Assembly (NCBI RefSeq): GCF_000307025.1
Contig: NC_018584.1
Coordinates: 2,861,174 to 2,885,173 of the forward strand
Source of the DNA: Listeria monocytogenes ATCC 19117
GTDB taxonomy: Bacteria; Bacillota; Bacilli; Lactobacillales; Listeriaceae
Direction: 5' to 3'
Length of the DNA: 24,000 bases
Shown in pieces: positions 3,209-21,383 of this stretch. The translations under genes and the position numbers were made by a program. The notes under the pieces are model-generated. The model worked only from the letters and a program-made list of their open reading frames with translations, was not told where the DNA came from and ran no database searches. Numbering within the stretch: the stretch's first letter is position 1; every line of letters begins with the position of its first letter.

Positions 3209-3246
3209 AAAATCCCAGCTACTAGTTTCGTAGCTGGGATTTTATA
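3209..3246. terminator. Bidirectional rho-independent terminator between convergent gshF and the GH1 gene
   Basis: Perfect 12-bp stem AATCCCAGCTAC (3211-3222) / GTAGCTGGGATT (3230-3241) with a 7-nt loop. It is flanked by an A-run upstream and a T-run downstream, so it can work on both strands. Confidence 0.85.
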
Positions 3247-6541
<3,295 letters not shown>

Positions 6542-6562
6542 GCTAATCCTCCTAAATATAAT

Positions 6563-6611
6563 AGAAAAACCTGAATGAAATGCACCTAAAAAAGCATACA
6601 ATCATCCAGGT
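6563..6611 (-). terminator. Conditional terminator of the second bgl riboregulator (between the antiterminator gene and the PTS gene)
   Basis: On the minus strand, an imperfect stem ACCTGGATGATTGTATGC ... GCATTTCATTCAGGT is followed by TTTTTC. Its 5' arm overlaps the 3' end of the RAT, which is the classical mutually exclusive arrangement. Confidence 0.7.
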
Positions 6612-6638
6612 ATTGCCCGCAAATCGCGGTAACAAGCC
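6609..6638 (-). promoter_or_regulatory. RAT (ribonucleic antiterminator) element 2
   Basis: The minus strand reads GGCTTGTTACCGCGATTTGCGGGCAATACC. This fits the BglG/LicT/SacY RAT pattern (GGnTTGTTACnG...GCnGGCAAnACC) and lies directly after the antiterminator stop codon. Confidence 0.8.
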
Positions 6639-6640
6639 TA

Positions 6641-7477
6641 TTAGTTATTTTTTCTTTTTAAAAGCCGTTCAATATGAAGCGCCAGATAAAACTGTTCCGA
6701 ATGACTCATCGTAAATTGATAATTCTTTTCCAAAAACACACCAATTTTATCAATACATTCGAAAATAGCGCCTCTACTTTTCTTCACTGTTTGATAAAGA
6801 AATTCATCCATTTCGTCAATTGTCTCGCCAATAATTACGCGTTGACAGAAAAACTTCAGATGGGTCATAAAACGATAATAATTCGTACTTTCTTCATCAA
6901 ATTCAATGTTAAAATGATATTTAATAATAGAAATAATTTCTTGAATTAACTGCATAATGTGTGTGACGTCGTTCATATCACTATCTACTTCCGCATTAAC
7001 AAAATGTAGCGCTATATTAGAAATTTCTGCATCAGGAAGCTCTATTTCAAGCTTACTTTCCACCATTTTCGCAGCCTCTTTGGCCACTGCGTATTCTTCC
7101 TGATAAAAGCGTTTCACTTCCCACGAGAGCGGATTTTCGATAACCACGTTTTCTTGCAAACGTTGCGTGGCAAAGTACAGATGATCCGAAAGAGAAATAT
7201 AGATGACATCACTAATATCTTTCGTCGTTTTCATTTTGAAAAGCTTCACAATATCGTCAGTTACTTCTAAAAATTGTATTGGAATTTCATTTACAATCAT
7301 TTTAAACTTATCCATTGTGTCATCTTTCAACTCAAAAACTTTTTCGATTTTCGATTCATTAATTGGATCGCCAACTTTAGAATTAAAGCCAAGCCCCTTT
7401 CCCAAAATCAGCAATTCCTGCGCATCCTCGTCAATCGCACTTACAATATTATTATTTAAAATCCTCTCAATTCTCAA
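6641..7477 (-). CDS. BglG/LicT-family PRD transcription antiterminator
   Basis: N-terminal CAT RNA-binding domain (RIERILNNNIVSAIDEDAQELLILGKGLGF) followed by two PRDs (...ALHFVNAE..., ...YLALHIERL). The track ORF begins at GTG 7489, which sits inside the RBS-like AGGTGGTGA. TTG at 7477, 5 nt after that RBS, is the more likely start; the start remains uncertain. Confidence 0.9.
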   Translation of the reverse strand: MRIERILNNNIVSAIDEDAQELLILGKGLGFNSKVGDPINESKIEKVFELKDDTMDKFKMIVNEIPIQFLEVTDDIVKLFKMKTTKDISDVIYISLSDHLYFATQRLQENVVIENPLSWEVKRFYQEEYAVAKEAAKMVESKLEIELPDAEISNIALHFVNAEVDSDMNDVTHIMQLIQEIISIIKYHFNIEFDEESTNYYRFMTHLKFFCQRVIIGETIDEMDEFLYQTVKKSRGAIFECIDKIGVFLEKNYQFTMSHSEQFYLALHIERLLKRKNN

Positions 7478-7499
7478 ACAAATCACCACCTATTTGAAG

Positions 7500-7557
7500 C
7501 AAAATAAAAAGAGCAATACCACACATATCAGCCAAAAAAACTAATATCTGGTATTGC
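7500..7557 (-). terminator. Conditional leader terminator of the bgl operon
   Basis: On the minus strand, GCAATACC (complement of 7550-7557) pairs with GGTATTGC (complement of 7513-7520) and is followed by TCTTTTTATTTT. The 5' arm is shared with RAT 1. Confidence 0.75.
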
Positions 7558-7579
7558 CCGCATTACCGGTAACAAGCCT
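7550..7579 (-). promoter_or_regulatory. RAT (ribonucleic antiterminator) element 1
   Basis: The minus strand reads GGCTTGTTACCGGTAATGCGGGCAATACC. It is nearly identical to RAT 2 and starts about where transcription from the upstream promoter should begin. Confidence 0.8.
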
Positions 7580-7586
7580 CATGGAT

Positions 7587-7615
7587 ATAGTACCACCATA
7601 TGAAATCGCTGTCAA
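7587..7615 (-). promoter_or_regulatory. Sigma-A-type promoter of the bgl operon
   Basis: On the minus strand: TTGACA (7615-7610), a 17-nt spacer, then TACTAT (7592-7587). The RAT begins about 7 nt downstream of the -10 element. Confidence 0.7.
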
Positions 7616-7641
7616 TGGGTTTTGTTAAAACCATTCTACCC

Positions 7642-7845
7642 TTAACTATTTTCGATTATTCCTCCCCTAGGTAACAGTATCTTATTTGTAATTAAATTTA
7701 AAATGAAATAGATTAAAACAAAGGAGCCCCAATAGATAACCAAGTTTTCATATCCAAGCAATAATACCCTAAAGAAAATTTTATGAATAAGCACCACTAA
7801 GAGTATTAAAAGACTATTTACTAAAGAAATACCGATAATTTTCAT
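7642..7845 (-). CDS. Small (67 aa) predicted two-TM membrane protein, last gene of the bacteriocin operon
   Basis: ATG overlaps the ABC ATPase stop in an ATGA junction (7845-7842). Strong RBS AAGGAGG lies 9 nt upstream. The sequence has two hydrophobic stretches (IIGISLVNSLLILLVVLI and VIYWGSFVLIYFILNLI). I recognise no family. Confidence 0.6.
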   Translation of the reverse strand: MKIIGISLVNSLLILLVVLIHKIFFRVLLLGYENLVIYWGSFVLIYFILNLITNKILLPRGGIIENS

Positions 7846-8465
7846 CTTATTTCGCCTCCTTCAATGTAAATGATTCGATCTGCTTTTGCAGATATTTCTG
7901 GGTCATGTGTGACACAAATGATTGTTTTACCTTGTTTTTTCAACGCTAAAAATAATTCAATGATTTTGTGTTTGTTTTTATCATCCAAGTTGCCTGTTGG
8001 TTCGTCCGCAAGTAATAACTGAAATGGTTTGAGTAAAATGCGCACAATAGCAATCCGTTGTTTTTCTCCACCGCTTAATTGGTATACTTTTTTTGCTAAA
8101 TAGCTTTCATCCATTCCTACTTCTTCTAAATGCTCTATCATCAGCTTGCGATTTTTTCCACCTGTAATGGATAAGTTTTCTAACACTGTTTCATTTTCCA
8201 TCAATAGATAATTTTGGAATATAAAACCTAACACCTCTTTTTTTAGAGTCATAACCTCTTTTTTCGGCTGATATTCCATCTCGTTAATAATAACTTGCCC
8301 ACTATCTTTTGAATCTAGGTGTCCGATAACATTCAGCAGCGTGGTCTTCCCACTACCACTCTCGCCGACGACTGCAATAAATTCACCAGCTCCAATAGAA
8401 AGAGAGACTTTTTCCAAAATCAATTTATCTTGTATCTTTTTACTGACATTAACTAATTCAATCAT
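7842..8465 (-). CDS. ABC transporter ATP-binding protein of the lactococcin-972 group (putative bacteriocin export/immunity)
   Basis: Walker A GESGSGKTT, signature LSGGEKQR, Walker B LLLADEPTGNLD and H-loop VTHD are present. The preferred start is ATG 8465 (RBS AAAGGTGA 5 nt upstream), which overlaps the upstream gene's stop. The track start at 8474 is a GTG inside that RBS. Confidence 0.9.
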   Translation of the reverse strand: MIELVNVSKKIQDKLILEKVSLSIGAGEFIAVVGESGSGKTTLLNVIGHLDSKDSGQVIINEMEYQPKKEVMTLKKEVLGFIFQNYLLMENETVLENLSITGGKNRKLMIEHLEEVGMDESYLAKKVYQLSGGEKQRIAIVRILLKPFQLLLADEPTGNLDDKNKHKIIELFLALKKQGKTIICVTHDPEISAKADRIIYIEGGEIR

Positions 8466-10626
8466 ATTTTTCACCTTTTAGTATGGCTTTAAAATCTTTA
8501 TAAATCGCTTTTTCCTTTATGAAATAAATGGCACATAGTTCTATTATGAGAATAACAACGCTAAAATATAGGGCAACCGGTTCTTTGCTAAGAATAAAAA
8601 TGAGGATTCCAGAAAAAACACTCACAAACAAATTGCTTATACTAAACCATTTACTACTTTTCCAAAACGAATAGCCAAATACATGATAAATTAGTTGCTT
8701 ATATAAGTTCTCCCCGTAATAGGACAGTACAAGAAGTACCATAAAAGAGCATAAGCATAGGGCTAAGATAATCGTACCTATCAATTGCTGATATATTTGC
8801 CATTTCAAAGTAGTTATTTCGCTTGAAACTTCTTGATAAACACTCCTTACATGGGTAATTTCTCTTGCATTTGAATTACTAATAAGTGGTAAGATAGCGT
8901 TAAAAGCGTCACCATTCGATTTATCAATAAAATATACAGAAGAAGTTACATGAGCGCCAATACTAGATGAGTCAATATTTCCCGTATATACAATCGCAAT
9001 TGGATCCGTGATATTTCCAGTCCTAAAATCCCCAGTATTACTATCATAGGAAAAATAATCTTGATTATTTTCTGCATAAATAATATTAACACTTAAGTCT
9101 TCCTTACTTAGCGCCACAGCAGGCAGGTCTAAAGCTTTGTTATAAATATTCGCCACTTCTACTTTTTGAAAATAGAAGTAATCGAGAAAAGTGTTTTTTA
9201 TATCTTTCTCTAGTCCCTTCTTACTATTAGGAACAATAATATTCAAAACTTTATCACTGATTATCGCTTCTTTTTCCACGTTCTGACCTTTTATACTTTT
9301 AATCGGATTTAATTTTAAGTAATTAAAATCAATTTCTACGCTATTACCCTCAGGTGAGTTTATTTCAGAGTCCTTTTTCAAATAAGTTTCATAGAAAAAA
9401 GTATTAGTTTCACTTCGCTGAAAATTATTCGAATACATTAAAAACATCTCTTTCTTAGATGTACCTTCTTCATAAAAAGCACTTAAATTGTTGTTTAGCT
9501 CTTTATCAGCTTTTAAGTTATCTTGAATCCCCTCAGGTAAAACCCCTACTTTTACTTTAAAAATGTCCTTTGTAGCTTCCCATACATCAATATTAGCTAG
9601 TCTTGTATTTAATGTCTGAAGTGATTGATAAGAAGCAATAAAAGTACCTATAAATAAGCAGAGCAGCACAAATTTAATAACTAGATTGATTGCCAAATGC
9701 TGTCTTGATGATTGCATACGCTGGTCTGATTTTGCTTGATCAATTTTCTTTATTCTAAGTAATCCAAAGAAATACATTGGAAACAGAATAAAAATAAATA
9801 AAAGTACATTAAATAAAAGCAACTTCCACACTATCTCCACTAAGTACGTGGCTAGCCCATTTGCTAAAACAATACTAACAAAAGTTATCAGAATTGCTAA
9901 CACACTAAACAAAGTAAATATTATAGTTTTATTGAACAAAGACATTAATGTAACTAATTCAGAATTCCCCCATATACGATTAACTAATAACCGTTGTTTA
10001 GAGTATCTTAAATAGTAATATGTAAAAACAAACAAAATAGCAAAACACAAAAGCAAAGTCATAAGTAACGGGATATTAATATATTTCCACCAGCTCACAT
10101 CAACACTTTTCGTAGTTATTTCCCCGTACTGTTCAAATTCCTTTAAAAAAGCCTGATACGTATCCTGGTTATCTAAGCCGCTTACATAAAAAGTATCACT
10201 TAGACCCACATTTTTAATCTGTCCAAAGTCATAAACCTTTAAAGACCAATACTTAGAAGGATGATAAATCACACCCGATTGTTTTTCATCGCCACTTTCC
10301 CGATTCACCAAAAACCGATTTTTATCGGGATAATCTCCTTTTTCAAGCTTTATATTTGGTGAATACTGGGGATTAGAGGCATAAATATTCAAATCGCGTT
10401 CATCTAAAAATGTATACTGCGCTATGTTAATATTGTTCGCTTCTGAAAATTGCTTTATAGAATTATTAACTTCTAAAACCTGAAAGTCATCTTTATATTT
10501 AAACTGCACTTCTGTCTGGTCTTTAAAAAGAAAATCACGCGACAAAGTATTACTAATAAAAGTAAAAAACATTATATTACCAATGACAAGTGTTACTAAT
10601 ATGATAATGGAAAGAAATTTTTTCAT
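8458..10626 (-). CDS. Bacteriocin-associated integral membrane protein (putative immunity/permease partner; TIGR01654/DUF1430-like)
   Basis: 722 aa. The layout is an N-terminal TM helix, a ~160-aa extracytoplasmic region, a cluster of TM helices, a second ~250-aa soluble region, then C-terminal TM helices. It sits between a Lcn972-type structural gene and an ABC ATPase, as in Lcn972-type loci. RBS TAAGGATGA precedes the ATG. Confidence 0.8.
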   Translation of the reverse strand: MKKFLSIIILVTLVIGNIMFFTFISNTLSRDFLFKDQTEVQFKYKDDFQVLEVNNSIKQFSEANNINIAQYTFLDERDLNIYASNPQYSPNIKLEKGDYPDKNRFLVNRESGDEKQSGVIYHPSKYWSLKVYDFGQIKNVGLSDTFYVSGLDNQDTYQAFLKEFEQYGEITTKSVDVSWWKYINIPLLMTLLLCFAILFVFTYYYLRYSKQRLLVNRIWGNSELVTLMSLFNKTIIFTLFSVLAILITFVSIVLANGLATYLVEIVWKLLLFNVLLFIFILFPMYFFGLLRIKKIDQAKSDQRMQSSRQHLAINLVIKFVLLCLFIGTFIASYQSLQTLNTRLANIDVWEATKDIFKVKVGVLPEGIQDNLKADKELNNNLSAFYEEGTSKKEMFLMYSNNFQRSETNTFFYETYLKKDSEINSPEGNSVEIDFNYLKLNPIKSIKGQNVEKEAIISDKVLNIIVPNSKKGLEKDIKNTFLDYFYFQKVEVANIYNKALDLPAVALSKEDLSVNIIYAENNQDYFSYDSNTGDFRTGNITDPIAIVYTGNIDSSSIGAHVTSSVYFIDKSNGDAFNAILPLISNSNAREITHVRSVYQEVSSEITTLKWQIYQQLIGTIILALCLCSFMVLLVLSYYGENLYKQLIYHVFGYSFWKSSKWFSISNLFVSVFSGILIFILSKEPVALYFSVVILIIELCAIYFIKEKAIYKDFKAILKGEKYD

Positions 10627-10645
10627 TAAATCATCCTTAGTTTAA

Positions 10646-10685
10646 CTATAAAGCTAAGAAACATAATAATTTCTTAGCTTTATAG
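10646..10685 (-). promoter_or_regulatory. Intercistronic stem-loop between the bacteriocin gene and the membrane-protein gene (partial terminator or mRNA stabiliser)
   Basis: Perfect 16-bp stem CTATAAAGCTAAGAAA (10646-10661) / TTTCTTAGCTTTATAG (10670-10685) with an 8-nt loop. It begins 3 nt after the bacteriocin stop. No clear T-tract follows on the minus strand. Confidence 0.6.
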
Positions 10686-10688
10686 GAA

Positions 10689-11084
10689 TTATTTTGTAGC
10701 CCAATTAGCTTTATTACCCCATAGCGATGATTTAATCCAAACACTTGCTAGATTGCTCTTTGGTTCCCACCTACTTCTTACTGTCGTCCTGAAATTAGAG
10801 GCACTTGATCTATGCATTTTTTTATAATGCTGATAATTTGAATAATGTCTATCTTGTCCCCATGTAACCCAGAAAGTACCGCCTCCAGCTGATTGCGCTG
10901 CTTTTAATAGAGGTTTTTTTCCTGTTGTGGTCTCAGAAAAAATCACTTTTTCACCTGTTTTATTTGCGCTCATTAGTGAATCTAAGCTAGTCTCTCCTTC
11001 ATTTAGATTTTGAGCAGCTAAGGCGCCCATCGGTGATAACACTGTAGGCAATGCTATCGCTAAAACACATACTTTTCTCTTCAT
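10689..11084 (-). CDS. Lactococcin-972-family bacteriocin precursor (Lmo2776-like)
   Basis: 131 aa. Sec-type signal peptide MKRKVCVLAIALPTVLSPMGALA/AQ. The C-terminal ~65 aa (GGGTFWVTWGQDRHYSNYQHYKKMHRSSAS...ASVWIKSSLWGNKANW) share the GTW / YSNY-H / H-S-A / VW-K landmarks I recall from mature Lcn972. RBS AGAGGGGGAGAA at 11089-11100. Confidence 0.85.
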   Translation of the reverse strand: MKRKVCVLAIALPTVLSPMGALAAQNLNEGETSLDSLMSANKTGEKVIFSETTTGKKPLLKAAQSAGGGTFWVTWGQDRHYSNYQHYKKMHRSSASNFRTTVRSRWEPKSNLASVWIKSSLWGNKANWATK

Positions 11085-11588
11085 TGTATTCTCCCCCTCT
11101 TTCCAATTAATAGTTATATTGCATAACCAAATAAACAGGTTAGAATATATCCTTCCCTATGAAACCTCCAAATTTTTACTTTTATAATATTCCAACTATT
11201 CCCAATGTAACACAAAAAAGTAATGTATAACCAAAATGTAATGAACGACTCCATTCTTATCCTAAATAGCTAAAGTTATAGTGTCTTAGTGCATTTTCTA
11301 CACATATCGTGTTACAAAAACTCCATTTTCAGAATAAAAAAGCGCTAGACAGCTCATTATACATGTTTCTATTCAGCCTCAAGCTTGATAGTCACAAAAG
11401 TTTCATATACCAGCTTAACTTAACCACATATATTTGAACTTGTTCACTTAAATGCTGAATTCAAGTAAATATCAGTGTATATTTATTCAATCGTCCACCA
11501 ACACTTTATCTTTCCACCCATTTATACTACAATAAACTTTAACGAAAAAACGGAACCTTCTCCGTTTAAAATAGAAAGGGGTGACTGC

Positions 11589-11660
11589 ATGCTTTTTTAC
11601 GAGCGTATTAAAATCATGGTCCCACCATTTCCCTGTGAAAGATGTTTTTTTCCCAGATAA
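11589..11660 (+). CDS. Candidate 23-codon leader peptide (MLFYERIKIMVPPFPCERCFFPR) upstream of the MFS gene
   Basis: ATG at 11589 is preceded by AAAGGGGTGA with 4-nt spacing. The stop lies 24 nt before the MFS start. The peptide contains a PPFP motif, and its last codons overlap a T7 run (11645-11651). Speculative. Confidence 0.3.
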   Translation: MLFYERIKIMVPPFPCERCFFPR

Positions 11661-11684
11661 ATAACTTATTCAGGAGAGAATTTT

Positions 11685-12875
11685 ATGGAAAAAAACATCG
11701 AAACAAAGAAAATAAATTTAGCATTACTTGTGTGCCTTGTGGGGTTTCCACAAATTAGCGAAACTATTTATACGCCTTCTTTAACGGAGATTGCTACGAG
11801 CTACGGCGTCTCATTAAATTTGGCTCAAATGACTTTAAGCATCTACTTTCTTGCTTTTGCAGTTGGTGTCTTCTTTTGGGGCGTTAGTTCCGATTTTTTA
11901 GGTCGACGAAAAGCAATGAACTTTGGGATATTTATCTATATTCTTGGTTGCTTCGTCTGCCTTTTTTCAAATAATATTACAATGCTTTTTATCGGACGCT
12001 TTGTTCAAGCATTTGGCGCAAGTACGGGTTCTGTTACAACACAGACCATTTTGCGTGACAACTACCACGGTAATGATCGCCACCATTTATTTGCAAAAAT
12101 CTCAGCCGCTTTGGCATTTTCACCGGCAATTGGGCCATTAATTGGTGGATTTATCGGACAATATTACGGCTTTCGCGTGGTTTTTTTATTTTTAGTAGTT
12201 ATGGGAATGATATTGCTGTTCTGGAGTTTAAAACGACTACCAGAAACAAAAACAGCGAACGCCACCCCATTCAGTGTGCAGAAAATGGTAGTAATTGGTA
12301 AAAAAATGATTTTTGACCGCTATACAATTGCTTTTGGAGTGCTAATTGGTATTTTTAATGGAATATTGTTTAGTTACTACTCTGAAGCTCCTACTATTTT
12401 TATTGAGAGGTTTCATTTTAATCAGAGTCAGTATGGCTTCATGGGGTGCGCAGTGGCTACGGCAACTATTTTAGGAGCTTGGCTATCGAACTGGCGCTTA
12501 AAGCAGAATTCACCTCATAAAATCATTAAAGAAGGAATTTTGCTAGCTCTTATTGGCACTCTATTTCTTAGCATGGTTGCCCTATTCCCGCTTACTATCC
12601 AAGTTATATTCTACATCTTCTTCATTTCTATTATCTTAGTAGGAATTGGCATGTCTTTACCAAATTGTTTAAGTCTAGCACTAGTGAAATTTCAAGAAGT
12701 TGCCGGTACAGCTGGCGCCTTTTTAAGCTTAGGATATTATGTAATTGTCAGTCTTTGTACTTTCTTCATTGGCGTTTTGCATTCAGGATCAATACTTGTA
12801 TTTCCCGCATTCTGCCTAGTATTACTTCTAATTGCCTTGCTCTGTATAAAAATAGCTGCTAGAAATAACCCTTAG
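11685..12875 (+). CDS. MFS transporter, Bcr/CflA-type drug efflux family
   Basis: 396 aa with about 12 TM segments. MFS motif A is present between TM2 and TM3 (SDFLGRRKAMNFG). RBS AGGAGAG lies 6-7 nt upstream of the ATG. Confidence 0.88.
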   Translation: MEKNIETKKINLALLVCLVGFPQISETIYTPSLTEIATSYGVSLNLAQMTLSIYFLAFAVGVFFWGVSSDFLGRRKAMNFGIFIYILGCFVCLFSNNITMLFIGRFVQAFGASTGSVTTQTILRDNYHGNDRHHLFAKISAALAFSPAIGPLIGGFIGQYYGFRVVFLFLVVMGMILLFWSLKRLPETKTANATPFSVQKMVVIGKKMIFDRYTIAFGVLIGIFNGILFSYYSEAPTIFIERFHFNQSQYGFMGCAVATATILGAWLSNWRLKQNSPHKIIKEGILLALIGTLFLSMVALFPLTIQVIFYIFFISIILVGIGMSLPNCLSLALVKFQEVAGTAGAFLSLGYYVIVSLCTFFIGVLHSGSILVFPAFCLVLLLIALLCIKIAARNNP

Positions 12876-12876
12876 C

Positions 12877-12923
12877 AAAAAACTGGCACCGTTTCTATCT
12901 TGAAACGGTGCCAGTTTTATTTT
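12877..12923 (+). terminator. Rho-independent terminator of the MFS gene
   Basis: Stem AAAACTGGCACCGTTTC / GAAACGGTGCCAGTTTT (about 12879-12918) is followed by TTTTATTTT. Confidence 0.88.
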
Positions 12924-12964: not shown

Positions 12965-13001
12965 ATAAAAAAAGTATTAAACCTCTAAAAGTCTAATACT
13001 T
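12965..13001 (-). terminator. Possible terminator of the 172-aa membrane protein gene
   Basis: On the minus strand, AAGTATTA (13001-12994) and TAATACTT (12979-12972) form an 8-bp, AT-only stem with a 14-nt loop, followed by TTTTTTTATT. This is a weak stem. Confidence 0.4.
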
Positions 13002-13007
13002 CTCTGA

Positions 13008-13517
13008 TTATGCTAATTGTTCGTTCATACTTTCCATTTGAGCAAGGAAGGCTTTTTGCCATTTCTTCTCATTTAGGAATTCAACGGGAAACTGAGGGTC
13101 AATTGTGGTTAAGATTTTAGCCCATGCGTCTGTACGTAATGAAGATGCTTGGCGAATCGCTATTACAAACATTATTATTGTTCCGGCAATTAAAAATAAA
13201 GTTAAAATAATACCTACAATGATTGTAGCTGTGATATTTCGGTTTATTCCAAAAAAGTACGTTAGATAACCTAAAATAAATGCGATTACAAAAAAACTAC
13301 CAATAAAAATAAAGGTTTTCTTACGGCTACCTCTATAAGTAGAAATACCTAGCGCTACTTCCAGCAATGCCATTTGACGAACCGGATTATTCTTCTTTGC
13401 AACTTGAATACCATATTTATCAATTAGTAAATGAGCTGCTTTTCTTTCTTCTTTGTTATTCTTTGGCATAATTACTAGAAGAATAACAAAAAATGCTATA
13501 ACCATTAACTGTATCAA
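13008..13517 (-). CDS. Hypothetical membrane protein (about 170 aa, 3-4 TM)
   Basis: Hydrophobic segments are LMVIAFFVILLVI, FIFIGSFFVIAFILGYLTYFF and IIVGIILTLFLIAGTIIMFVIAI, with a charged C-terminal tail. I recognise no family. The start is ambiguous: GTG 13526 (track), TTG 13517 (8 nt after AGGAG, preferred) or ATG 13505. Confidence 0.65.
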   Translation of the reverse strand: MIQLMVIAFFVILLVIMPKNNKEERKAAHLLIDKYGIQVAKKNNPVRQMALLEVALGISTYRGSRKKTFIFIGSFFVIAFILGYLTYFFGINRNITATIIVGIILTLFLIAGTIIMFVIAIRQASSLRTDAWAKILTTIDPQFPVEFLNEKKWQKAFLAQMESMNEQLA

Positions 13518-13549
13518 AAAAAACACTCCTATAATAAAATTTATAGTTA

Positions 13550-13577
13550 ATTATAGCATCATTCCGCTCTCTGCAAA
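13550..13577 (-). promoter_or_regulatory. Candidate promoter of the 172-aa membrane protein gene
   Basis: On the minus strand: TTTGCA / TTGCAG (13577-13571), a 15-16-nt spacer, then TATAAT (13555-13550). Confidence 0.4.
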
Positions 13578-13658
13578 TTGTATATTTTGTGAATTAATTA
13601 GTGCAAATAAATTAAACATTCCCTTATATATATTGACAAAATCGCTTAATTGATTGTT

Positions 13659-15088: not shown

Positions 15089-15397
15089 TTACTTCATCTC
15101 TTTCCAAATAGCAATCATCTCATAAGCTACATCGCGTAATGTATAAGTTGTCATAAATTGATCTTCCGCGTGCATGAAGAGGATAGAAATTTGTACGTCT
15201 CCGCCATCTGCCTCTTTTTGAATTAGTTGCACATGATTTTTATGACCTTCGCTAAGAAATTCATTAGCCTCGTCAATTTTTTTATATGCTTCTGTGAATT
15301 TTCTTTGTCTTCCGAATTTCATCGCCTCAATAATGCAACTTCTTGCGGCGCCAACAGAACTAATTATTTGAAATGATGCGAGTTCCATTCCTTCCAT
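15089..15397 (-). CDS. PTS lactose/cellobiose-family EIIA component
   Basis: 102 aa, helical. The conserved His context is FMHAEDQFM. RBS GGAGG lies 9 nt upstream, within the last codons of the GH3 gene. Confidence 0.9.
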   Translation of the reverse strand: MEGMELASFQIISSVGAARSCIIEAMKFGRQRKFTEAYKKIDEANEFLSEGHKNHVQLIQKEADGGDVQISILFMHAEDQFMTTYTLRDVAYEMIAIWKEMK

Positions 15398-15402
15398 TTT
15401 CG

Positions 15403-17673
15403 CTAGCCTCCTATGATTGAAACTCGCCCTGTTAATTTAGTATCAGAACTTCCACCAACGAAAATTTCTATACCACCGGGCTCCACCTCATATTTATTGT
15501 TAATTGACCATATTTCAAAACTTGATTTATCTAGCTTAAATGTCACTGTAGCTGTTTGTTTCGCTGCAATACGAACCTTTTTAAATGCTTTTAATTCTTT
15601 TTTTCTTCTAGTAATACTTGCTTCCATATCATGAAGATAAAGTTGCACAACTTCTTCACCGGCTACATTAGAGGTGTTTTTTAAAGTTACTTTCACTTCT
15701 ACAGATTGCCCGCCAAGGAGTTCTGCTATTTTTATAGATTCTTGTTTTATCTGTAAATCTTGATATTCAAAAGTGCTATAACTTAAACCATAACCAAATG
15801 GATAGAGCGGCTTACCAGTTAAATCAAAGTAGTCTTCTTTATACTCCACTGCCTTTTGATTGTAGTAAATAGGAATCTGCCCGGAGGATCTTGGTATGCT
15901 GACTGGTAATTTACCTGAAGGATTGTAATGACCGAAAAGAACCTCAGCAATCGCCGTTCCACCAACACTTCCTGGATACCAAGCTGTGAGAATCGCATCC
16001 GCTGTCGAACTAATTTCTGGGATAGCGATTGGTCTACCTTGAATCATTACGACAATTACAGGCTTTCCAGTACGCTTCATTGCGTAAAACAAATCTAATT
16101 GCGGTTGTGGAAGCGTGATATCAGCAACATCCACATTTTCACCGGCATCCATGTTCGGGCCCTTAGAGCTTACCGCGCCATTATTTAAAAATTCCATGTC
16201 AAAATTCCGCGCACTTGAACCACCGAGCACCATAACAATGGCGTCTGCCTCTTTAGCAACCACTTCTGCTCTTTGAATGCCATCCGGAAGCTCTTCACGA
16301 ATTTCAGTACCTTTTTCAGAAACGACTTCCCAATTTTTAGGAAGCAGTTTTTTTATCCCTTCTAACACAGTGACACATTCTGATTCATTTTGCGGAGCTG
16401 TATAATCTCCCAACTGATTATAAAGCGCATCTATGCTAGGACCAACAACAGCTATTTTTTTCCGTTCGCCTACTAGAGGTAATGTTTCGAAGTCGTTTTT
16501 CAAAAGACAAATACCCTCTCTAGCGGCTTGTAAATTTAGTTGTTTCCAATCAGACTTCGGTGCTTGAATTTCTTCTTCTACAAACGGTTGTTCAAATAGC
16601 CCTAATTGGAATTTCACTTGAAGCACTCGCCTCACAGCATCATCAACGACCTTTTCATCAAGGATGCCTTTTTCCACGCTTTCTTCAAGAAATGGAAACA
16701 CTTCATCCCACAAACTCAAATCCACACCGGCTTCAAGAGCCATTTTTGCGGCTTTTTTTGGATCAGGATTTAGTTTTAATAATCTATCAAGGGCACACCC
16801 ATCTGCCATAACAATCCCGGAGAATCCCATTTCTTCTCGCAAAATAGTTGTTAAAAGCTCTTTGTTCGCGTGGCATGGCACCCCGTCAATCTCGTTGTAA
16901 GCTGCCATGACGCCAAGAGCACCACTTCTAATTCCCGCGCGCATTGGTTCCAAGAAAATTTCTCTAAGTTCCCTTACGCCAATAGAAACTGGTCCAGAAT
17001 TATGCCCGCCAATCGGCTCGCCTTGTGCCGCAAAATGTTTTAAAATAACAGCAATCTTCCCACTCGCTTGAAAGCCTTCTGTAATTGCCGCTGTTAATTC
17101 CGCTGCAAGGTATGGATCTTCACCGTAACACTCTTCAGCGCGTCCCCAACGTGGGTCTCGAAGTATGTCTAATGCTGAAGCAAGTGCTAGATGAACTCCC
17201 TTTTCGGAAATTTCTTCTGTAATCGCACTTGCGACCTGTTTTTGCAACTCTGGATTAAAAGAAGCAGCACGAGCTAAATTTACCGGATAAGATTCGCTAT
17301 CTAACGCTTGGTGACCGTGCGGAACTTCCTCAGCTAATAGTACAGGAATCCCTAGGCGCGTATTTTCTATCACATAGCGTTGAATTTTATTAGCTACTTT
17401 GCCAGCATTTTTCCGACTTACACCCGTGTCCTTATTCATTTTGGACCATGGATCAGCGCGGAACAGACCGTATAAAGCGCCTATACCTTCAAATCTAGTT
17501 ACTTCCTCTTTAAATTTTTCCGTGATATGAAACGTTTCGCCATCTCTTGAAAAAGCTTCCCAGCCATACATTCTTTGGTTTAGTTGACCACATTTTTCTG
17601 CTAAGGTCATCTTGGAAAGTAAGTCTTCTACACGTTCTGAAACTGGTTTCTCCTTATCCAAATAAACAGCCAT
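15403..17673 (-). CDS. Glycoside hydrolase family 3 beta-glucosidase (BglX-like), cytoplasmic
   Basis: 756 aa with no signal peptide. GH3 landmarks are present: KHFAAQGEPIGGHNSG and GFSGIVMADG (nucleophile Asp region). There is a C-terminal fibronectin-III-like domain. RBS AAGGAGGAGAA precedes the ATG. Confidence 0.9.
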   Translation of the reverse strand: MAVYLDKEKPVSERVEDLLSKMTLAEKCGQLNQRMYGWEAFSRDGETFHITEKFKEEVTRFEGIGALYGLFRADPWSKMNKDTGVSRKNAGKVANKIQRYVIENTRLGIPVLLAEEVPHGHQALDSESYPVNLARAASFNPELQKQVASAITEEISEKGVHLALASALDILRDPRWGRAEECYGEDPYLAAELTAAITEGFQASGKIAVILKHFAAQGEPIGGHNSGPVSIGVRELREIFLEPMRAGIRSGALGVMAAYNEIDGVPCHANKELLTTILREEMGFSGIVMADGCALDRLLKLNPDPKKAAKMALEAGVDLSLWDEVFPFLEESVEKGILDEKVVDDAVRRVLQVKFQLGLFEQPFVEEEIQAPKSDWKQLNLQAAREGICLLKNDFETLPLVGERKKIAVVGPSIDALYNQLGDYTAPQNESECVTVLEGIKKLLPKNWEVVSEKGTEIREELPDGIQRAEVVAKEADAIVMVLGGSSARNFDMEFLNNGAVSSKGPNMDAGENVDVADITLPQPQLDLFYAMKRTGKPVIVVMIQGRPIAIPEISSTADAILTAWYPGSVGGTAIAEVLFGHYNPSGKLPVSIPRSSGQIPIYYNQKAVEYKEDYFDLTGKPLYPFGYGLSYSTFEYQDLQIKQESIKIAELLGGQSVEVKVTLKNTSNVAGEEVVQLYLHDMEASITRRKKELKAFKKVRIAAKQTATVTFKLDKSSFEIWSINNKYEVEPGGIEIFVGGSSDTKLTGRVSIIGG

Positions 17674-17707
17674 ATTCTTTCTCCTCCTTGCTAAAAAACT
17701 AAGAATG

Positions 17708-18007
17708 TCACAATAAACTAATTGCTAAATCTAATACTTTTTCACCATTCATTCGACCATAATCAACGATATCAATAACTGCCACCGATACATTATCACC
17801 AACTGTTTCTATAACCTTATCTTTCATATAATTCACTTGCGGTCCAAGTAAAATCGCATCAGCTTTACGCCAATTTTTTTCGAAATCCGTTTCTGAAATA
17901 GCCCAGATAGTCAGTTCTAAATTACGTTCTTCTACAACGCGTTCCATTTTCCTCACTAAAACGCTTGTAGACATTCCCGCATTACACATCAACATAATAT
18001 TTTTCAT
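17708..18007 (-). CDS. PTS lactose/cellobiose-family EIIB component
   Basis: 99 aa with the active-site Cys motif MLMCNAGMSTS. RBS GGAGGG precedes the ATG. Confidence 0.92.
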   Translation of the reverse strand: MKNIMLMCNAGMSTSVLVRKMERVVEERNLELTIWAISETDFEKNWRKADAILLGPQVNYMKDKVIETVGDNVSVAVIDIVDYGRMNGEKVLDLAISLL

Positions 18008-18021
18008 AAAAATCCCTCCAA

Positions 18022-19317
18022 TTAGGCTTTAATTCTGTCATTGGCTTTTAAGAATGGTAGGTAAAGAAGTACGCAGACGCCAATCAAGAAAATTTGGAAT
18101 ACTGCAGCACGCCAGTCCCCACCTGTTGCAAGGAAGCCGGAAGCAACAACTGGTGTCGTCCACGGAACCATTACGACTACTTCTGAAATCATATGCAGCT
18201 TTGTCGCGAAGTAGGCTAAACATAAGCAAAGCGGTGTTGAAATAATGAACGGAATCATCAAACTCAAGTTATAAACAATCGGAAGGCCAAATACTACCGG
18301 TTCATTGATATTAAATAGACCAGGAGCTGCCGATAAAGTAGCTATTTCGCGATAATCTTTTCGTTTTGACCAAATAAAAATTGCTATTAACAGCGCAATA
18401 GTATTTCCGCCGCCGCCCATAACGCCAAAAACATCACGGAAAGTAGTATTAATAATATGCGGAATCTCTGTGTGATTCGCAAATGCTGTCATATTTTCTT
18501 GCATATTTGCCAAAAGAACTGGGTCCATAATCGGCCCTAAAATCCCACTTCCAGCAATACCGATAGAATAAAGCATTTGTGAAATCGTCATTAACGTTAG
18601 GAACCCTGGAACACTTGTAACTAAGAATGTTAATGGTTCTTGAATAATTGCGCTAATTAAAGAATACAAATTCAAGCTGAATAATGTCACTACTAAGAAT
18701 GAAATAAACGCAAAAATAAGTATTGTTAACATTGTCGGAATAAGCACATTGAATGATTTAATTACGGCTGGAGGTACGCTATCCCCAGAAATATGGATTT
18801 TCATTTTCTCACTCTTAGAAAGACGAATGAATACTTCTGTTGCAAGAAGCGCCGTTACAATCCCAACGAACATGCCCGCCGAACCCATCAAGGCTATTGG
18901 TAATACTCCAGCAACTTCCACAGATTTCTCTGCACCAATCGGCACAATTTCTGTTACAGCTGGGATAAAAATAACAATCAGTGCAATGGTCATTAACGCT
19001 GGTGCAAACGGATTTTCAAACTTCCGGTTTTGCGCTAAAAAGTAAGCAACTGAAGCTCCAATCAAAATAGTAATAATTCCTAAAGTCCCGTTCACAATAC
19101 TGTTACCTAGCCCCTGCCAAGTCGTAAGTGTTTCGGAACTGATGATCGCCGACATAAAACCATCCGGCTTAATAATCACGTTATTAATTAAAACCATGAA
19201 TCCTGCTAACATAATAAAAGGTAAAATAGTAGCAAATGCATCACGCATAGACTTTAAATGAATTTGATTTCCAAGCTTCTGCGATAACCAACTTAATTTC
19301 TCGATGAACTTTTTCAA
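18022..19317 (-). CDS. PTS lactose/cellobiose-family EIIC permease
   Basis: 431 aa with about 10 TM segments and typical EIIC-cel architecture. RBS AAAGGAGG precedes the ATG. Confidence 0.92.
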   Translation of the reverse strand: MKKFIEKLSWLSQKLGNQIHLKSMRDAFATILPFIMLAGFMVLINNVIIKPDGFMSAIISSETLTTWQGLGNSIVNGTLGIITILIGASVAYFLAQNRKFENPFAPALMTIALIVIFIPAVTEIVPIGAEKSVEVAGVLPIALMGSAGMFVGIVTALLATEVFIRLSKSEKMKIHISGDSVPPAVIKSFNVLIPTMLTILIFAFISFLVVTLFSLNLYSLISAIIQEPLTFLVTSVPGFLTLMTISQMLYSIGIAGSGILGPIMDPVLLANMQENMTAFANHTEIPHIINTTFRDVFGVMGGGGNTIALLIAIFIWSKRKDYREIATLSAAPGLFNINEPVVFGLPIVYNLSLMIPFIISTPLCLCLAYFATKLHMISEVVVMVPWTTPVVASGFLATGGDWRAAVFQIFLIGVCVLLYLPFLKANDRIKA

Positions 19318-19347
19318 TTTTTTATACCTCCTTTGATATTACAATAA

Positions 19348-19361
19348 GTGTAGCGCTTTCT
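19348..19361. promoter_or_regulatory. Candidate catabolite-responsive element (cre) in the PTS operon promoter region
   Basis: The minus strand reads AGAAAGCGCTACAC, against the cre consensus TGWAANCGNTNWCA. The central AAGCGCT core is intact but the flanks are imperfect. Confidence 0.35.
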
Positions 19362-19384
19362 TTTTGTTAAATAAATCTAGTCTT

Positions 19385-19413
19385 TTTCCGCATCTGTATT
19401 TTACATGCGGAAA
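19385..19413. promoter_or_regulatory. Inverted repeat upstream of the PTS IIC gene (candidate operator for the adjacent LicR-type regulator)
   Basis: TTTCCGCAT (19385-19393), 11 nt, ATGCGGAAA (19405-19413). The arms are perfect 9-bp repeats. No T-tract follows on either strand, so it is not an obvious terminator. Confidence 0.4.
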
Positions 19414-19460
19414 TAAAAAAAGGCCCGTTAACTTTTCTCTCTAAGAAAGTCTAACGAACC
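19414..19460 (-). terminator. Rho-independent terminator of the LicR-type regulator gene
   Basis: On the minus strand, GGUUCGUUA (19460-19452) pairs with UAACGGGCC (19430-19422) using two G-U pairs. There is an inner helix, and the stem is followed by TTTTTTT. Confidence 0.7.
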
Positions 19461-19466
19461 TTTTGG

Positions 19467-21383
19467 TTATATCGTTTGTAACACACGCATAAATTCTTCA
19501 AAACTTGTCACACGTTTTAGCTCTCCCATTGCTTTTGGACTTTCTACTAAATTGCTAATAAGCTCATACACCGTCGCAAGCTGCTGTTGTTGCTTGTTTT
19601 TTACCGCTAACATGAAAATCACTTGTGCCTGATCTTCCTCATTCCACTTTACCCCACCGCCAGTAAAAATACATACTCCAATAGCTGTTTCTTGGACGTT
19701 TGCTTCAATTGGGTGTGGTGCCGCAAGTCCATTACCTAAATAAGTCGGCACAATTTCTTCGCGCTCAAAAAGTGATGGTAAATAGTCCTCGCCAACAATA
19801 TTATTTTCCAGCAAAAGACTCGCTAAATCTACCAGAACTTGCTCTTTGTCCTTTTTATCACTAATTAAGAATAACGATTCCTTAAAAACCTTGTCCACTT
19901 CAAATTGGTTCTTCGTCTCATCTTGCTTCATTAACGCAGTGATATTACGAATATCCGCCTTTGTCAAAAATGGCGATACTTGAATAAATGGATGTAACTT
20001 CATTCGCAGTGGTACTGTAGAGATAACAAAGTCACATGCCGTTCCACTCTGCTCATATTCTTTAAATGAGTACACGCCGACTATTTCAAGCGTATTCTCA
20101 AACTCTTTTCGTACTTTAGATTCCAAAAGTTGCGACGTCCCTAAACCAGAAGCACAAACAATCAATACTTTTTGCTTCTCAGACCCTATTTCCTTATCTA
20201 AGCCATACAAAAAGTGAATAGCCAAATATCCTACTTCCGCTTCGTCTACATTTGTTTTTAACTCCTGCTCAAGGACTTCTTTAGCAACCAACCCTAATTC
20301 AAAAGCTAGTGGATAATTAGCTTTTAGATTTTTTAAATACGGGTTTTGTATATTCATATTAAATTTAATTCTGTTAATAGCTGGCTTTAAATGCAAAGCG
20401 ATATTGGAAATCATTTTCTGGTCTTGCTTAAAATCATAACCGTACAGCTCTTTAATCTTTTCTAACATCTTATCCACGATGATATATTCTCGGTAATTAT
20501 TAAAGTCACTTTTTCTGTTTTTCGAACTAAGGTGTAGCAGCAGATAGGCAGTCTCACTTTCCGGGAAACGAATTCCTTCTGAAAGATCTATTTCTTTTAT
20601 AATACCTTGAGCCGCCCTTAATTCCGGCATACTAAATTCAATATCCTCCAAATCTGTTGCAGGTACATAACAATTATCTTTTACACGACATACAGCAATT
20701 GCGATATGAATAATCAAATTTTTAACTGAAATGTCCGTCATGTGAATATTATATTTCGCTATATTAGAAACGACAATCTGCTCCATCATTTCCAAATTAA
20801 CTTCTCCAAAAAAATTTATTTCTGTTTCTGTAATAAGCGGGCTTGTAGATTCCACTAACAAATATCTTGAAAAGCAAAATCGGATAGCAAGTTCTGCACC
20901 AGTAATTCTAATGCCATAGCCAGCCCGTTTTTCCACTTTCAACTCATTTTCTTTGAGTTTTCGTTTCACTTCTAAAATATCCAAGTTTATCGTAGACTTA
21001 CTAACAAAAAGCTCTTCTGACAACGTCTCCAGCTTTACATAGTCATTTTTGAGTAATAAATATCGAATAATATAATCTGCTCTATCCTCTGCAAACATCG
21101 GTACAATATTCATATTAGCTCTTCCTATCGAATCGTCCAAAAGAGCTTCACGCAGCGCTTTTTCATCACCAATGACCAGACGATATCCTACACCAGGAAG
21201 TGATTCGATTCTGTTTCCGCCTATCATCAGTATTTGATTAATTACTTTAATATCATTTCTAATTGTCCGAGGGTTAACAGCTAATGCCTCCCCTAATTCT
21301 CCACCGCTAATAAACTCCATCTTCAAATAAAGCATATGAACTATTTGTTTCCATCTAGGTAATGATAATTTTGAAGCACTCAC
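19467..21383 (-). CDS. LicR/CelR-type PRD-containing transcriptional regulator (HTH, 2 PRDs, EIIB-like and EIIA-like domains)
   Basis: 638 aa. N-terminal winged HTH (GGELGEALAVNPRTIRNDIKVIN), two PRDs (..LIIHIAIAV.., ..YLAIHFL..), an EIIB-like Cys motif (VLIVCASGLGTSQLL) and an EIIA(Mtl/Fru)-like His motif (GNGLAAPHP). GTG start with RBS GAGGAGTGGAG upstream. Confidence 0.9.
   Translation of the reverse strand: MSASKLSLPRWKQIVHMLYLKMEFISGGELGEALAVNPRTIRNDIKVINQILMIGGNRIESLPGVGYRLVIGDEKALREALLDDSIGRANMNIVPMFAEDRADYIIRYLLLKNDYVKLETLSEELFVSKSTINLDILEVKRKLKENELKVEKRAGYGIRITGAELAIRFCFSRYLLVESTSPLITETEINFFGEVNLEMMEQIVVSNIAKYNIHMTDISVKNLIIHIAIAVCRVKDNCYVPATDLEDIEFSMPELRAAQGIIKEIDLSEGIRFPESETAYLLLHLSSKNRKSDFNNYREYIIVDKMLEKIKELYGYDFKQDQKMISNIALHLKPAINRIKFNMNIQNPYLKNLKANYPLAFELGLVAKEVLEQELKTNVDEAEVGYLAIHFLYGLDKEIGSEKQKVLIVCASGLGTSQLLESKVRKEFENTLEIVGVYSFKEYEQSGTACDFVISTVPLRMKLHPFIQVSPFLTKADIRNITALMKQDETKNQFEVDKVFKESLFLISDKKDKEQVLVDLASLLLENNIVGEDYLPSLFEREEIVPTYLGNGLAAPHPIEANVQETAIGVCIFTGGGVKWNEEDQAQVIFMLAVKNKQQQQLATVYELISNLVESPKAMGELKRVTSFEEFMRVLQTI

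Follow-up and report, generated by a model that had tools for sequence, protein, structure and literature searches.

The 24,000-nucleotide stretch of Listeria monocytogenes ATCC 19117 examined here (contig NC_018584.1; below, the window, to whose positions all coordinates refer) carries a lactococcin 972 (Lcn972)-type bacteriocin system that is already known in the same species, where it has been published as lmo2774-lmo2776 of strain EGD-e. We read the locus as the Lmo2776 bacteriocin operon, a four-gene producer and immunity cassette of the Lcn972 family. As we reconstruct it, the cassette is old at this site in the L. monocytogenes, L. innocua and L. welshimeri group, and deletions that lead to its decay remove the toxin gene first and spare the immunity genes, above all the small WGxF gene. 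For this reading as a whole, with the mechanism and the evolutionary history proposed below, we put the probability at roughly 0.78.

An earlier note, made from the letters of this DNA, had placed four tightly packed, co-directional minus-strand genes at 7642-11084, and the open reading frames (ORFs) lie exactly there (Table 1). The three genes that follow the toxin gene are coupled in translation: the permease and ATPase ORFs overlap, and an ATGA is common to the ATPase stop codon and the WGxF start codon. A 62-nt spacer containing a stable hairpin separates the toxin gene from the permease gene. Adjacency, common direction and overlaps thus link the toxin gene to the DUF1430-type protein and the ABC (ATP-binding cassette) ATPase. 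Public annotations start the ATPase at the ATG (8465, 207 aa). On the 5' side of the operon, the intergenic region that the note had put at about 600 bp measures exactly 600 bp (11085-11684). On the 3' side, the -35 element of the bgl promoter (TTGACA, 7615) is 26 nt from the WGxF stop codon (7642-7644), which is the spacing given before. A scan of the whole window with Rfam returned zero matches.

The trio of precursor, DUF1430-type protein and ABC ATPase had been proposed to be an Lcn972-type system, and the profile comparisons that the note called for support this assignment. The 131-aa precursor matches the Lcn972 family in both NCBIfam (TIGR01653, 116.5 bits, cutoff 32.1) and Pfam (PF09683, Lactococcin_972, 22.4 bits, cutoff 22). 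The permease scores 758.6 bits against TIGR01654 (cutoff 189.35), with residues 11-718 aligned to profile positions 2-681 of 681, and 81.5 bits against the Pfam model PF07242 (DUF1430). The ATPase matches TIGR03608 over its full length at 253.3 bits, 1.5 bits short of the cutoff of 254.85. This score is 96 bits above the next NCBIfam family, FtsE at 157.1, which is followed by DarD, MacB and LolD, with DevA sixth and YbbA eleventh. The ATPase also scores 105.8 bits against ABC_tran (Pfam), and its Walker A, signature, Walker B and H-loop motifs are all intact. The 67-aa ORF is a membrane protein, as the note had described it, but it is not an unnamed extra: it matches NF037932, 'bacteriocin-like WGxF protein', at 90.7 bits (cutoff 40; profile positions 1-58 of 59) and is the conserved fourth gene in Listeria, on Bacillus plasmids and in SPbeta phages.

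Table 1. Features of the bacteriocin locus in window coordinates.
Feature	Position	Strand	Basis or remark
Motif copy 1, TGGTTATACATTA, of TGGTTATRCAWTA (13 nt; candidate regulator-binding site)	11221-11233	minus	conserved block
Candidate sigma-70-type promoter (-35 GTTACA, 16-nt spacer, -10 TATTAT)	11184-11211	minus	consensus scan
Motif copy 2, TGGTTATGCAATA	11117-11129	minus	between candidate promoter and ribosome-binding site (RBS)
Bacteriocin precursor gene, 131 aa	10689-11084	minus	ORF call; good RBS GGGGGAG
Sec-type signal peptide, codons 1-24 (MKRK, hydrophobic core, ALA-A)	11013-11084	minus	sequence inspection
Pro-region, codons 25-68 (44 aa)	10881-11012	minus	alignment; invariant L34, D35, G44, G68
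Lcn972 core domain, putative mature toxin Gly69-Lys131, codons 69-131 and stop	10689-10880	minus	TIGR01653, PF09683
Intercistronic hairpin, 16-17 bp stem (perfect 16-bp inverted repeat), 6-8 nt loop	10646-10685	minus	repeat search
Putative recombinant tract, ~480 bp (toxin core domain, hairpin, first ~75 permease codons)	10400-10880		window versus L027 mismatches
Permease gene, 722 aa, TIGR01654 / DUF1430	8458-10626	minus	profile matches, AlphaFold2 (AF2) model, Foldseek
ABC ATPase gene	7842-8474 from GTG (210 aa); 7842-8465 from ATG (207 aa)	minus	TIGR03608, 253.3 bits
WGxF gene, 67 aa, two-helix membrane protein	7642-7845	minus	NF037932, 90.7 bits

The exact 131-, 722- and 67-aa sequences are L. 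monocytogenes proteins present on thousands of contigs, and more than 10,000 blocks of a public assembly collection index the window allele. These matches, together with a sister allele that carries the published EGD-e mature domain, identify the locus as lmo2774-lmo2776. The two share species, chromosomal position, genes and gene order at ~96% nucleotide identity, and both precursors are 131 aa long with the same signal peptide and pro-region. The EGD-e locus has been described as encoding a secreted bacteriocin of 107 aa, as rising in expression in stationary phase and as variably present among L. monocytogenes; a synthetic Gly69-Lys131 peptide of EGD-e was active against Prevotella copri and Bacillus subtilis (Rolhion et al., 2019; PMC6854461). 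It was published as three genes, and the WGxF gene was merely drawn in the figure of a later review (PMC7076858). The equivalence given in the earlier note therefore stands for the locus but not for the allele. In the putative mature domain of the window, GTFWVTWGQDRHYSNYQHYKKMHRSSASNFRTTVRSRWEPKSNLASVWIKSSLWGNKANWATK, 11 of 63 residues differ from the published EGD-e peptide, the permease departs from the EGD-e type at 12 of its 75 N-terminal residues, and the WGxF protein has 67 aa where the EGD-e type has 62 or 65. Three other L. monocytogenes loci (L027, L038 and L059) encode a mature domain identical to the EGD-e peptide.

The toxin and permease differences trace to a tract of ~480 bp that resembles L. 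innocua. In a comparison of the window with L027, the 481 nt of the tract hold 61 mismatches and the 2999 nt beyond it hold 57 (Fisher p 1.7e-23). Identity to L. innocua L029 is 93-100% within the tract; elsewhere the window shares 77-90% identity with L. innocua and 96-100% with L027. The permease shows the same boundary, with 12 differences in the 75 N-terminal residues and 13 in the remaining 647 (p 1e-6), and at the other end precursor residues 1-68 carry two or three differences from the EGD-e type (two against P0047). Such a concentration of amino acid changes in the toxin domain (11/63 versus 2/68 in leader and pro-region) could be taken as positive diversifying selection acting in situ. 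We rejected this explanation, which we consider highly improbable, in favor of recombination. Synonymous divergence (dS) is raised together with nonsynonymous divergence, at 0.47 against L027 in the tract and 0.04 beside it, the ratio of nonsynonymous to synonymous divergence (dN/dS) in the tract is 0.18, and the tract takes in the non-coding hairpin and the start of the permease gene. Identity of the tract to L. innocua, 97-100% in this comparison, also speaks against selection in situ. Against L. innocua, dS in the tract is 0.056. These comparisons indicate homologous recombination in the toxin tract, which is innocua-like. In a third L. monocytogenes haplotype, L050 (FDAARGOS_57), the toxin gene, hairpin, permease start, ATPase gene and WGxF gene are 98.5-100% identical to the window, and permease codons 76-722 only 84-92%, so the locus has gone through more than one round of reshuffling. 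Because 11 of 63 mature residues differ and the EGD-e peptide is the one that was tested, P. copri specificity should not be assumed for the window allele.

The precursor itself has the anatomy of a Sec substrate. By inspection alone, it has an ALA-A cleavage site at residues 22-25 and no double-glycine leader, and removal of 24 residues from 131 leaves 107, equal to the secreted form reported for EGD-e (Rolhion et al., 2019; PMC6854461). The pro-region that follows is conserved in the Listeria/Bacillus subfamily, and Lcn972 itself has none. At the nucleotide level it is 97.5% identical to the EGD-e-type allele and 83% to L. innocua. Given the invariant residues that the pro-region shares from Listeria to Bacillus, the active toxin may be either the 107-aa form or the 63-aa form assumed to date.

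At 31.9% GC against 37.6% for the rest of the window, the four-gene island has the lowest GC content of all windows of the same size (3.4 kb; 34.9-40.8% in non-overlapping ones), and the spot counts of the earlier note, about 28% and 42%, are reproduced at 28.3% (9301-9360) and 41.7% (22021-22080). Much of the drop falls on codon positions 1 and 2, that is, on amino acid composition, and GC at third positions (GC3) is 0.27-0.31 in island genes and 0.25-0.38 in flanking genes. The drop is real but modest, and because GC3 is only ~4 points lower, the compositional evidence for foreign origin is weak. The locus is neither universally conserved nor identical in composition to its flanks. L. monocytogenes, L. 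innocua and L. welshimeri all have the four genes at this one site, adjoining a divergent major facilitator superfamily (MFS) gene.

Empty and decayed sites were located through variants of the WGxF protein. Among the sites examined that lack the full locus there was no clean empty site; all are deletion derivatives that keep remnants. In L. innocua Clip11262 (AL592022.1) and its relatives, a 735-bp deletion has taken the promoter-proximal region together with the toxin gene and hairpin, and the permease, ATPase and WGxF genes are intact. Two diverged toxin-less haplotypes of this kind have dN/dS values of 0.28 for the permease, 0.06 for the ATPase and 0 for WGxF, and 1893 blocks of the assembly collection index the L. 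innocua WGxF protein against 691 for the L. innocua toxin. Many L. monocytogenes carry one identical double-deletion scar, in which an undamaged upstream region, two pieces of lcn (codons 1-5 and ~46-62), the final 13 codons of the ATPase gene and a complete WGxF gene are left. Its junctions lie at microhomologies of 7 nt (AAAAAGT) and 8 nt (AAAAGCAG), and it yields a 32-aa fusion ORF, beginning MKKKVIFSETTTGKKPLLKADRIIY, that is coupled to WGxF. Some loci with the scar have the bgl operon beside them and others do not.

The earlier note had proposed an accessory, horizontally acquired island. A recently acquired genomic island between core genes, with strains that lack the locus representing the ancestral empty site, would agree with the lowest GC content of the window, with variable presence in L. 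monocytogenes (Rolhion et al., 2019; PMC6854461) and with the occurrence of the module elsewhere: in L. seeligeri and L. ivanovii (beside an IS3 transposase gene in L032) and on Bacillus plasmids and phages. We nevertheless regard recent acquisition as unlikely. The position beside the MFS gene is the same in three species, GC3 is close to that of the flanks, and the window contains no tRNA gene, flanking repeats or integrase gene. Moreover, every 'empty' site examined keeps the promoter, lcn and ABC remnants and an intact WGxF gene, with microhomologies of 7-8 nt at the junctions. Because every site examined without the full locus carries such remnants, loss explains presence and absence at this site better than recent gain. 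What stands of the proposed island is low GC, variable presence and mobility in the long term; the supposed absence is a set of deletion scars, and signatures of mobility are missing.

Nor did the neighboring bgl operon (3244-7665) prove to be the core sugar operon that it had been taken for. It is missing at this site in L. innocua, in L. welshimeri and in some L. monocytogenes that have the bacteriocin locus or a remnant of it. A genome-contig scan with the BglG flank found no empty site; its matches came only from L. immobilis, L. costaricensis, L. ilorinensis and non-Listeria genera, and in the three named species the bgl operon lies among unrelated genes. These matches showed that the bgl operon moves independently. 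In L. innocua a strong terminator shared with gshF follows the WGxF gene, and in the window the same terminator follows bglA. The operon encodes a BglG/LicT antiterminator, a beta-glucoside phosphotransferase system (PTS) enzyme EIIBCA and a 6-phospho-beta-glucosidase; its leader has a sequence like a ribonucleic antiterminator (RAT) site at 7550-7578, followed by a T run at 7532-7540. The bgl operon and the WGxF gene have no strong terminator between them, so transcription running on from the bacteriocin operon would encounter the terminator that LicT controls.

The permease provides the main clue to mechanism. Its AF2 model (predicted local distance difference test score, pLDDT, 81.9) has 8 predicted transmembrane (TM) helices and two extracytoplasmic domains, arranged as two repeats of a TM helix, an extracytoplasmic domain and three TM helices. 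Sequence and profile searches of the Protein Data Bank returned chance matches alone. All significant Foldseek matches are type VII ABC permeases of the MacB/FtsX fold: YbbP (2.9e-10), Spr0694-5 (4e-5), MacB (9e-5), LolE (4.5e-4) and BceB (8e-4), and also YtrF, HrtB and FtsX. As modeled, the permease is a fused double FtsX-type module like those of MacB, BceB and YbbP, and a Pfam clan already groups DUF1430 with FtsX (PMC6588880). This predicted fold favors surface immunity over export.

We propose the following scheme. The toxin would leave the cell through Sec rather than through the ABC system and, by analogy with Lcn972, would act on lipid II, the cell-envelope precursor, of target bacteria. 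The permease and two copies of the ATPase would form a type VII 'mechanotransmission' complex, in which ATP hydrolysis in the cytoplasm dislodges toxin from the outer face of the producer membrane and so confers self-immunity, much as BceAB acts against bacitracin; WGxF would be a further membrane immunity or accessory component. We infer ATP-driven toxin removal, rather than export, from three lines of evidence: the toxin has its own Sec signal, the permease, ATPase and WGxF genes are kept where the toxin gene is gone, and the minimum inhibitory concentration for Lactococcus lactis rises from 12.5 to 800-1600 AU/ml, 64- to 128-fold, when it carries the Lcn972 cluster (PMC4055356). Mechanotransmission without transport across the membrane is suggested by the fold class alone.

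Alternatively, the permease and ATPase could be a dedicated bacteriocin exporter, with immunity encoded elsewhere. Many class II bacteriocins are exported by ABC transporters, and TIGR03608 bears the name 'putative bacteriocin export ABC transporter'. We find this improbable for a precursor that bears a classical Sec signal peptide instead of a double-glycine leader, and for a permease that has no peptidase domain and belongs to a MacB/FtsX-fold class, of which the characterized representatives work on the outer side of the membrane without translocation across it. Toxin-less L. innocua, moreover, keep both genes intact and under purifying selection, and a study of the related bacteriocin mediterrocin argues likewise (PMC12345188).

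WGxF is, on the evidence of its alignment, a real and constrained gene. W39, G40 and F42 are invariant, and within L. innocua there are 0 nonsynonymous against 4-7 synonymous differences. The protein has two long hydrophobic stretches, with Kyte-Doolittle means over 19 residues of 2.0-2.66. Beyond a conserved core of 58 residues its tail varies, giving lengths of 61, 62, 65 and 67 aa; the bgl junction falls inside the last WGxF codons and accounts for the tail variants. A G-run, CTAGGGGAGG, at 7661-7670 near the 3' end of the ORF also shows strain-to-strain indels that produce the 62-, 65- or 67-aa tails. The NCBI family name, the small size and the position in a bacteriocin operon might suggest that WGxF is itself a small hydrophobic bacteriocin-like peptide rather than an immunity or accessory membrane protein. 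This is very unlikely: the protein has two long hydrophobic stretches and no signal or leader peptide, its translation is coupled to the ATPase gene, and it is kept alone behind the operon promoter where toxin, permease and ATPase have been lost, although a toxin retained without immunity would be unexpected. The survival of WGxF alone in scar strains raises the speculation that it has a role independent of the ABC complex.

A bolder version of this idea, which we hold to be doubtful, joins WGxF to the recombinant tract. The toxin core, hairpin and first ~75 permease residues would form one exchangeable cassette for specificity, passed between L. innocua and L. monocytogenes by homologous recombination, the two toxin types (window/innocua and EGD-e) would have different targets and no cross-immunity, and WGxF would be an autonomous immunity factor. 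If WGxF does act in this way, its sole survival behind the operon promoter in deletion strains would be explained.

Expression of the operon may be set at two points, upstream and between the toxin and permease genes. The candidate promoter lies just downstream of a block common to all Listeria loci, and motif copy 1 is within this block, the sole upstream segment conserved in alignments of L. monocytogenes, L. innocua, L. welshimeri, L. seeligeri and L. ivanovii. The window contains two exact copies of TGGTTATRCAWTA and one match with a single mismatch, where 0.14 matches are expected, and toxin-less L. innocua Clip11262 keeps copy 1 ~50 bp upstream of its permease gene. The motif is a candidate operator for a stationary-phase regulator; our literature search found no regulators of lmo2774-2776. 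The hairpin between the toxin and permease genes has a predicted RNA free energy of -21.6 kcal/mol (z -5.5). L. seeligeri and L. ivanovii have a hairpin with another sequence at the corresponding position; a U tract belongs to the hairpins of L. seeligeri and Bacillus, and the one on a B. subtilis plasmid is a canonical terminator. The simplest reading of the L. monocytogenes hairpin is that of a leaky terminator or a stabilizer controlling how much toxin transcript accumulates relative to immunity transcript: by lowering read-through or by stabilizing the toxin message, it would leave toxin transcript in excess.

Several points weigh against our reading of the locus as a Lmo2776-type producer and immunity cassette with this mechanism. 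Some concern the toxin. Lipid II binding by a Lmo2776-type toxin is only an analogy, because the match of precursor residues 69-125 to residues 2-55 of the Lcn972 structure 2LGN is weak (phmmer, E 0.1) and the AF2 model of the precursor is poor (pLDDT 50.5), residues 69-116 being modeled as all-beta but unreliably. The published target P. copri is Gram-negative and fits a simple lipid II model poorly. Others concern the immunity genes: the ATPase falls just below its family cutoff, as noted above; Foldseek TM-scores for the permease are low (0.2-0.45), so that the fold class is clear and the domain arrangement is not; and we found in the literature searched no experiment that assigns immunity individually to lmo2774, lmo2775 or WGxF. 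As for control, the promoter and the upstream motif are predictions, and the L. monocytogenes hairpin has no U tract, which makes a role as an attenuator uncertain.

The module also occurs well beyond this site. In L. seeligeri and L. ivanovii the four genes lie at a second site, between a metallophosphoesterase gene and feoAB, with ~69% nucleotide identity over window positions 7668-11125; an IS3 transposase gene flanks the module only in L. seeligeri L032. In L. ivanovii L033 (10479-12643) the permease is split into two ORFs of 147 and 580 aa and is probably a frameshifted pseudogene, and the toxin gene is intact. Bacillus has the four-gene order on plasmids, one a 10.7-kb MOBV plasmid and others larger, and in SPbeta-like phages. 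The WGxF gene is present in 11 of 11 Bacillus plasmids with a Lmo2776-like toxin gene, and it was not found on the S. epidermidis plasmid examined; an E. faecium record of the module ends inside the ATPase gene. The temperate phage SPbetaL7 (L053, 3544-7015) carries a complete four-gene module annotated as hypothetical proteins. This distribution supports horizontal mobility of the module on a longer time scale.

The Bacillus modules (B. mycoides p10720, B. subtilis and B. velezensis plasmids, SPbetaL6 and SPbetaL7) follow the same order, from a long Lcn972-family precursor to WGxF, and like the window they have a hairpin or terminator after the toxin gene. They differ in being carried by mobilizable plasmids or temperate phages, show 31-58% protein identity to the window and are annotated by family name or as hypothetical only. 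The Lcn972 operon of plasmid pBL1 in L. lactis IPLA972 (lcn972-orf2-orf3) shares the Sec-dependent precursor, the DUF1430-type protein and the ABC ATPase, and the same family models apply to both. In contrast to the window locus, it is plasmid-borne, its sequence similarity is weak (E 0.1 to 2LGN), and its 91-aa precursor has no 44-aa pro-region; the 66-aa mature chain matches from Lmo2776 residue 69. Lcn972 acts on lactococci only, and among the family members compared it is the only one for which lipid II binding is known. Descriptions of its operon, the basis of our comparison in place of the pBL1 sequence, do not report a WGxF gene; they link the DUF1430-type protein and the ABC ATPase to immunity (PMC4055356). 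The mediterrocin cluster of Mediterraneibacter gnavus, set beside the window by description, encodes a distant, Sec-secreted Lcn972-family homologue in a larger cluster, where a regulator and mobile elements are also found. Its DUF1430 protein is the proposed immunity protein, and its ABC protein is not needed for export (PMC12345188).

Set against YbbAP, BceAB, MacB, LolCDE, HrtBA and FtsEX, the modeled permease and its ATPase appear to share the fold (TM helices with an extracytoplasmic domain) and the ATPase subfamily. Like YbbP and BceB, the permease is a single fused polypeptide and would be expected to pair with two ATPase copies. Unlike the type VII systems, it is predicted to have 8 TM helices and a distinctive pair of extracytoplasmic domains, with no detectable sequence similarity to any solved structure, and unlike BceAB it has no BceRS-like two-component system adjacent.

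On the other side of the intergenic region, the leader of the MFS gene (11504-11684, plus strand) is 92-97% conserved across species, against 84-91% for the MFS gene itself (the lmo2777 homologue). Within this leader lie a hairpin (11548-11567) and a separate upstream ORF of 23 aa (11589-11660; MLFYERIKIMVPPFPCERCFFPR, proline-rich) that has an RBS of its own, and the leader may be a leader-peptide attenuator of the efflux gene. The 3' two-thirds of the MFS gene (11950-12900) are 73-86% identical to EGD-e-type L. monocytogenes and 90-97% to L. innocua and L. welshimeri. The DUF6097 gene (12968-13613) is ~79% identical to the EGD-e-type locus and again 90-97% to the other two species, and extra genes (SUKH-family and others) are present or absent from strain to strain. 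By these comparisons the MFS/DUF6097 stretch is a second zone of recombination and variation beside the bacteriocin locus. Farther away, a cellobiose-type PTS, glycoside hydrolase family 3 (GH3) glycosidase and PTS regulation domain (PRD) regulator operon (15089-21383) lies between ychF and kat; in the L. innocua and L. welshimeri loci this operon is absent and kat adjoins ychF.

Some database records of the locus are misleading. PLSDB files Listeria chromosomal DNA as plasmids, namely a 2.9-Mb L. monocytogenes chromosome and a 594-kb fragment (L050 NZ_CP030101.1 and NZ_LR134400.1). Apparent carriage by 'Listeria phage LM 4-11-1' was rejected: OR846756.1 (L052) is an UNVERIFIED chromosomal host contig that includes the locus. 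'Listeria phage LM 4-14-1' gives the same 99.9% match.

The system described here is not of a new kind. What may be new is detail: a mosaic, innocua-like toxin allele, decay forms that are toxin-less or reduced to WGxF, modules on Bacillus plasmids and in SPbeta phages, and the double FtsX fold of the permease. In the literature searched, published functional work concerns the EGD-e peptide, and the window allele is found in more than 10,000 collection blocks. The toxin-less L. innocua loci and the WGxF-only scars are natural genotypes for assigning immunity to single genes. Just two bacteriocins of L. monocytogenes, Lmo2776 among them, have been shown to influence infection by way of the gut microbiota, and the details added here provide testable leads on the immunity and specificity of Lmo2776.

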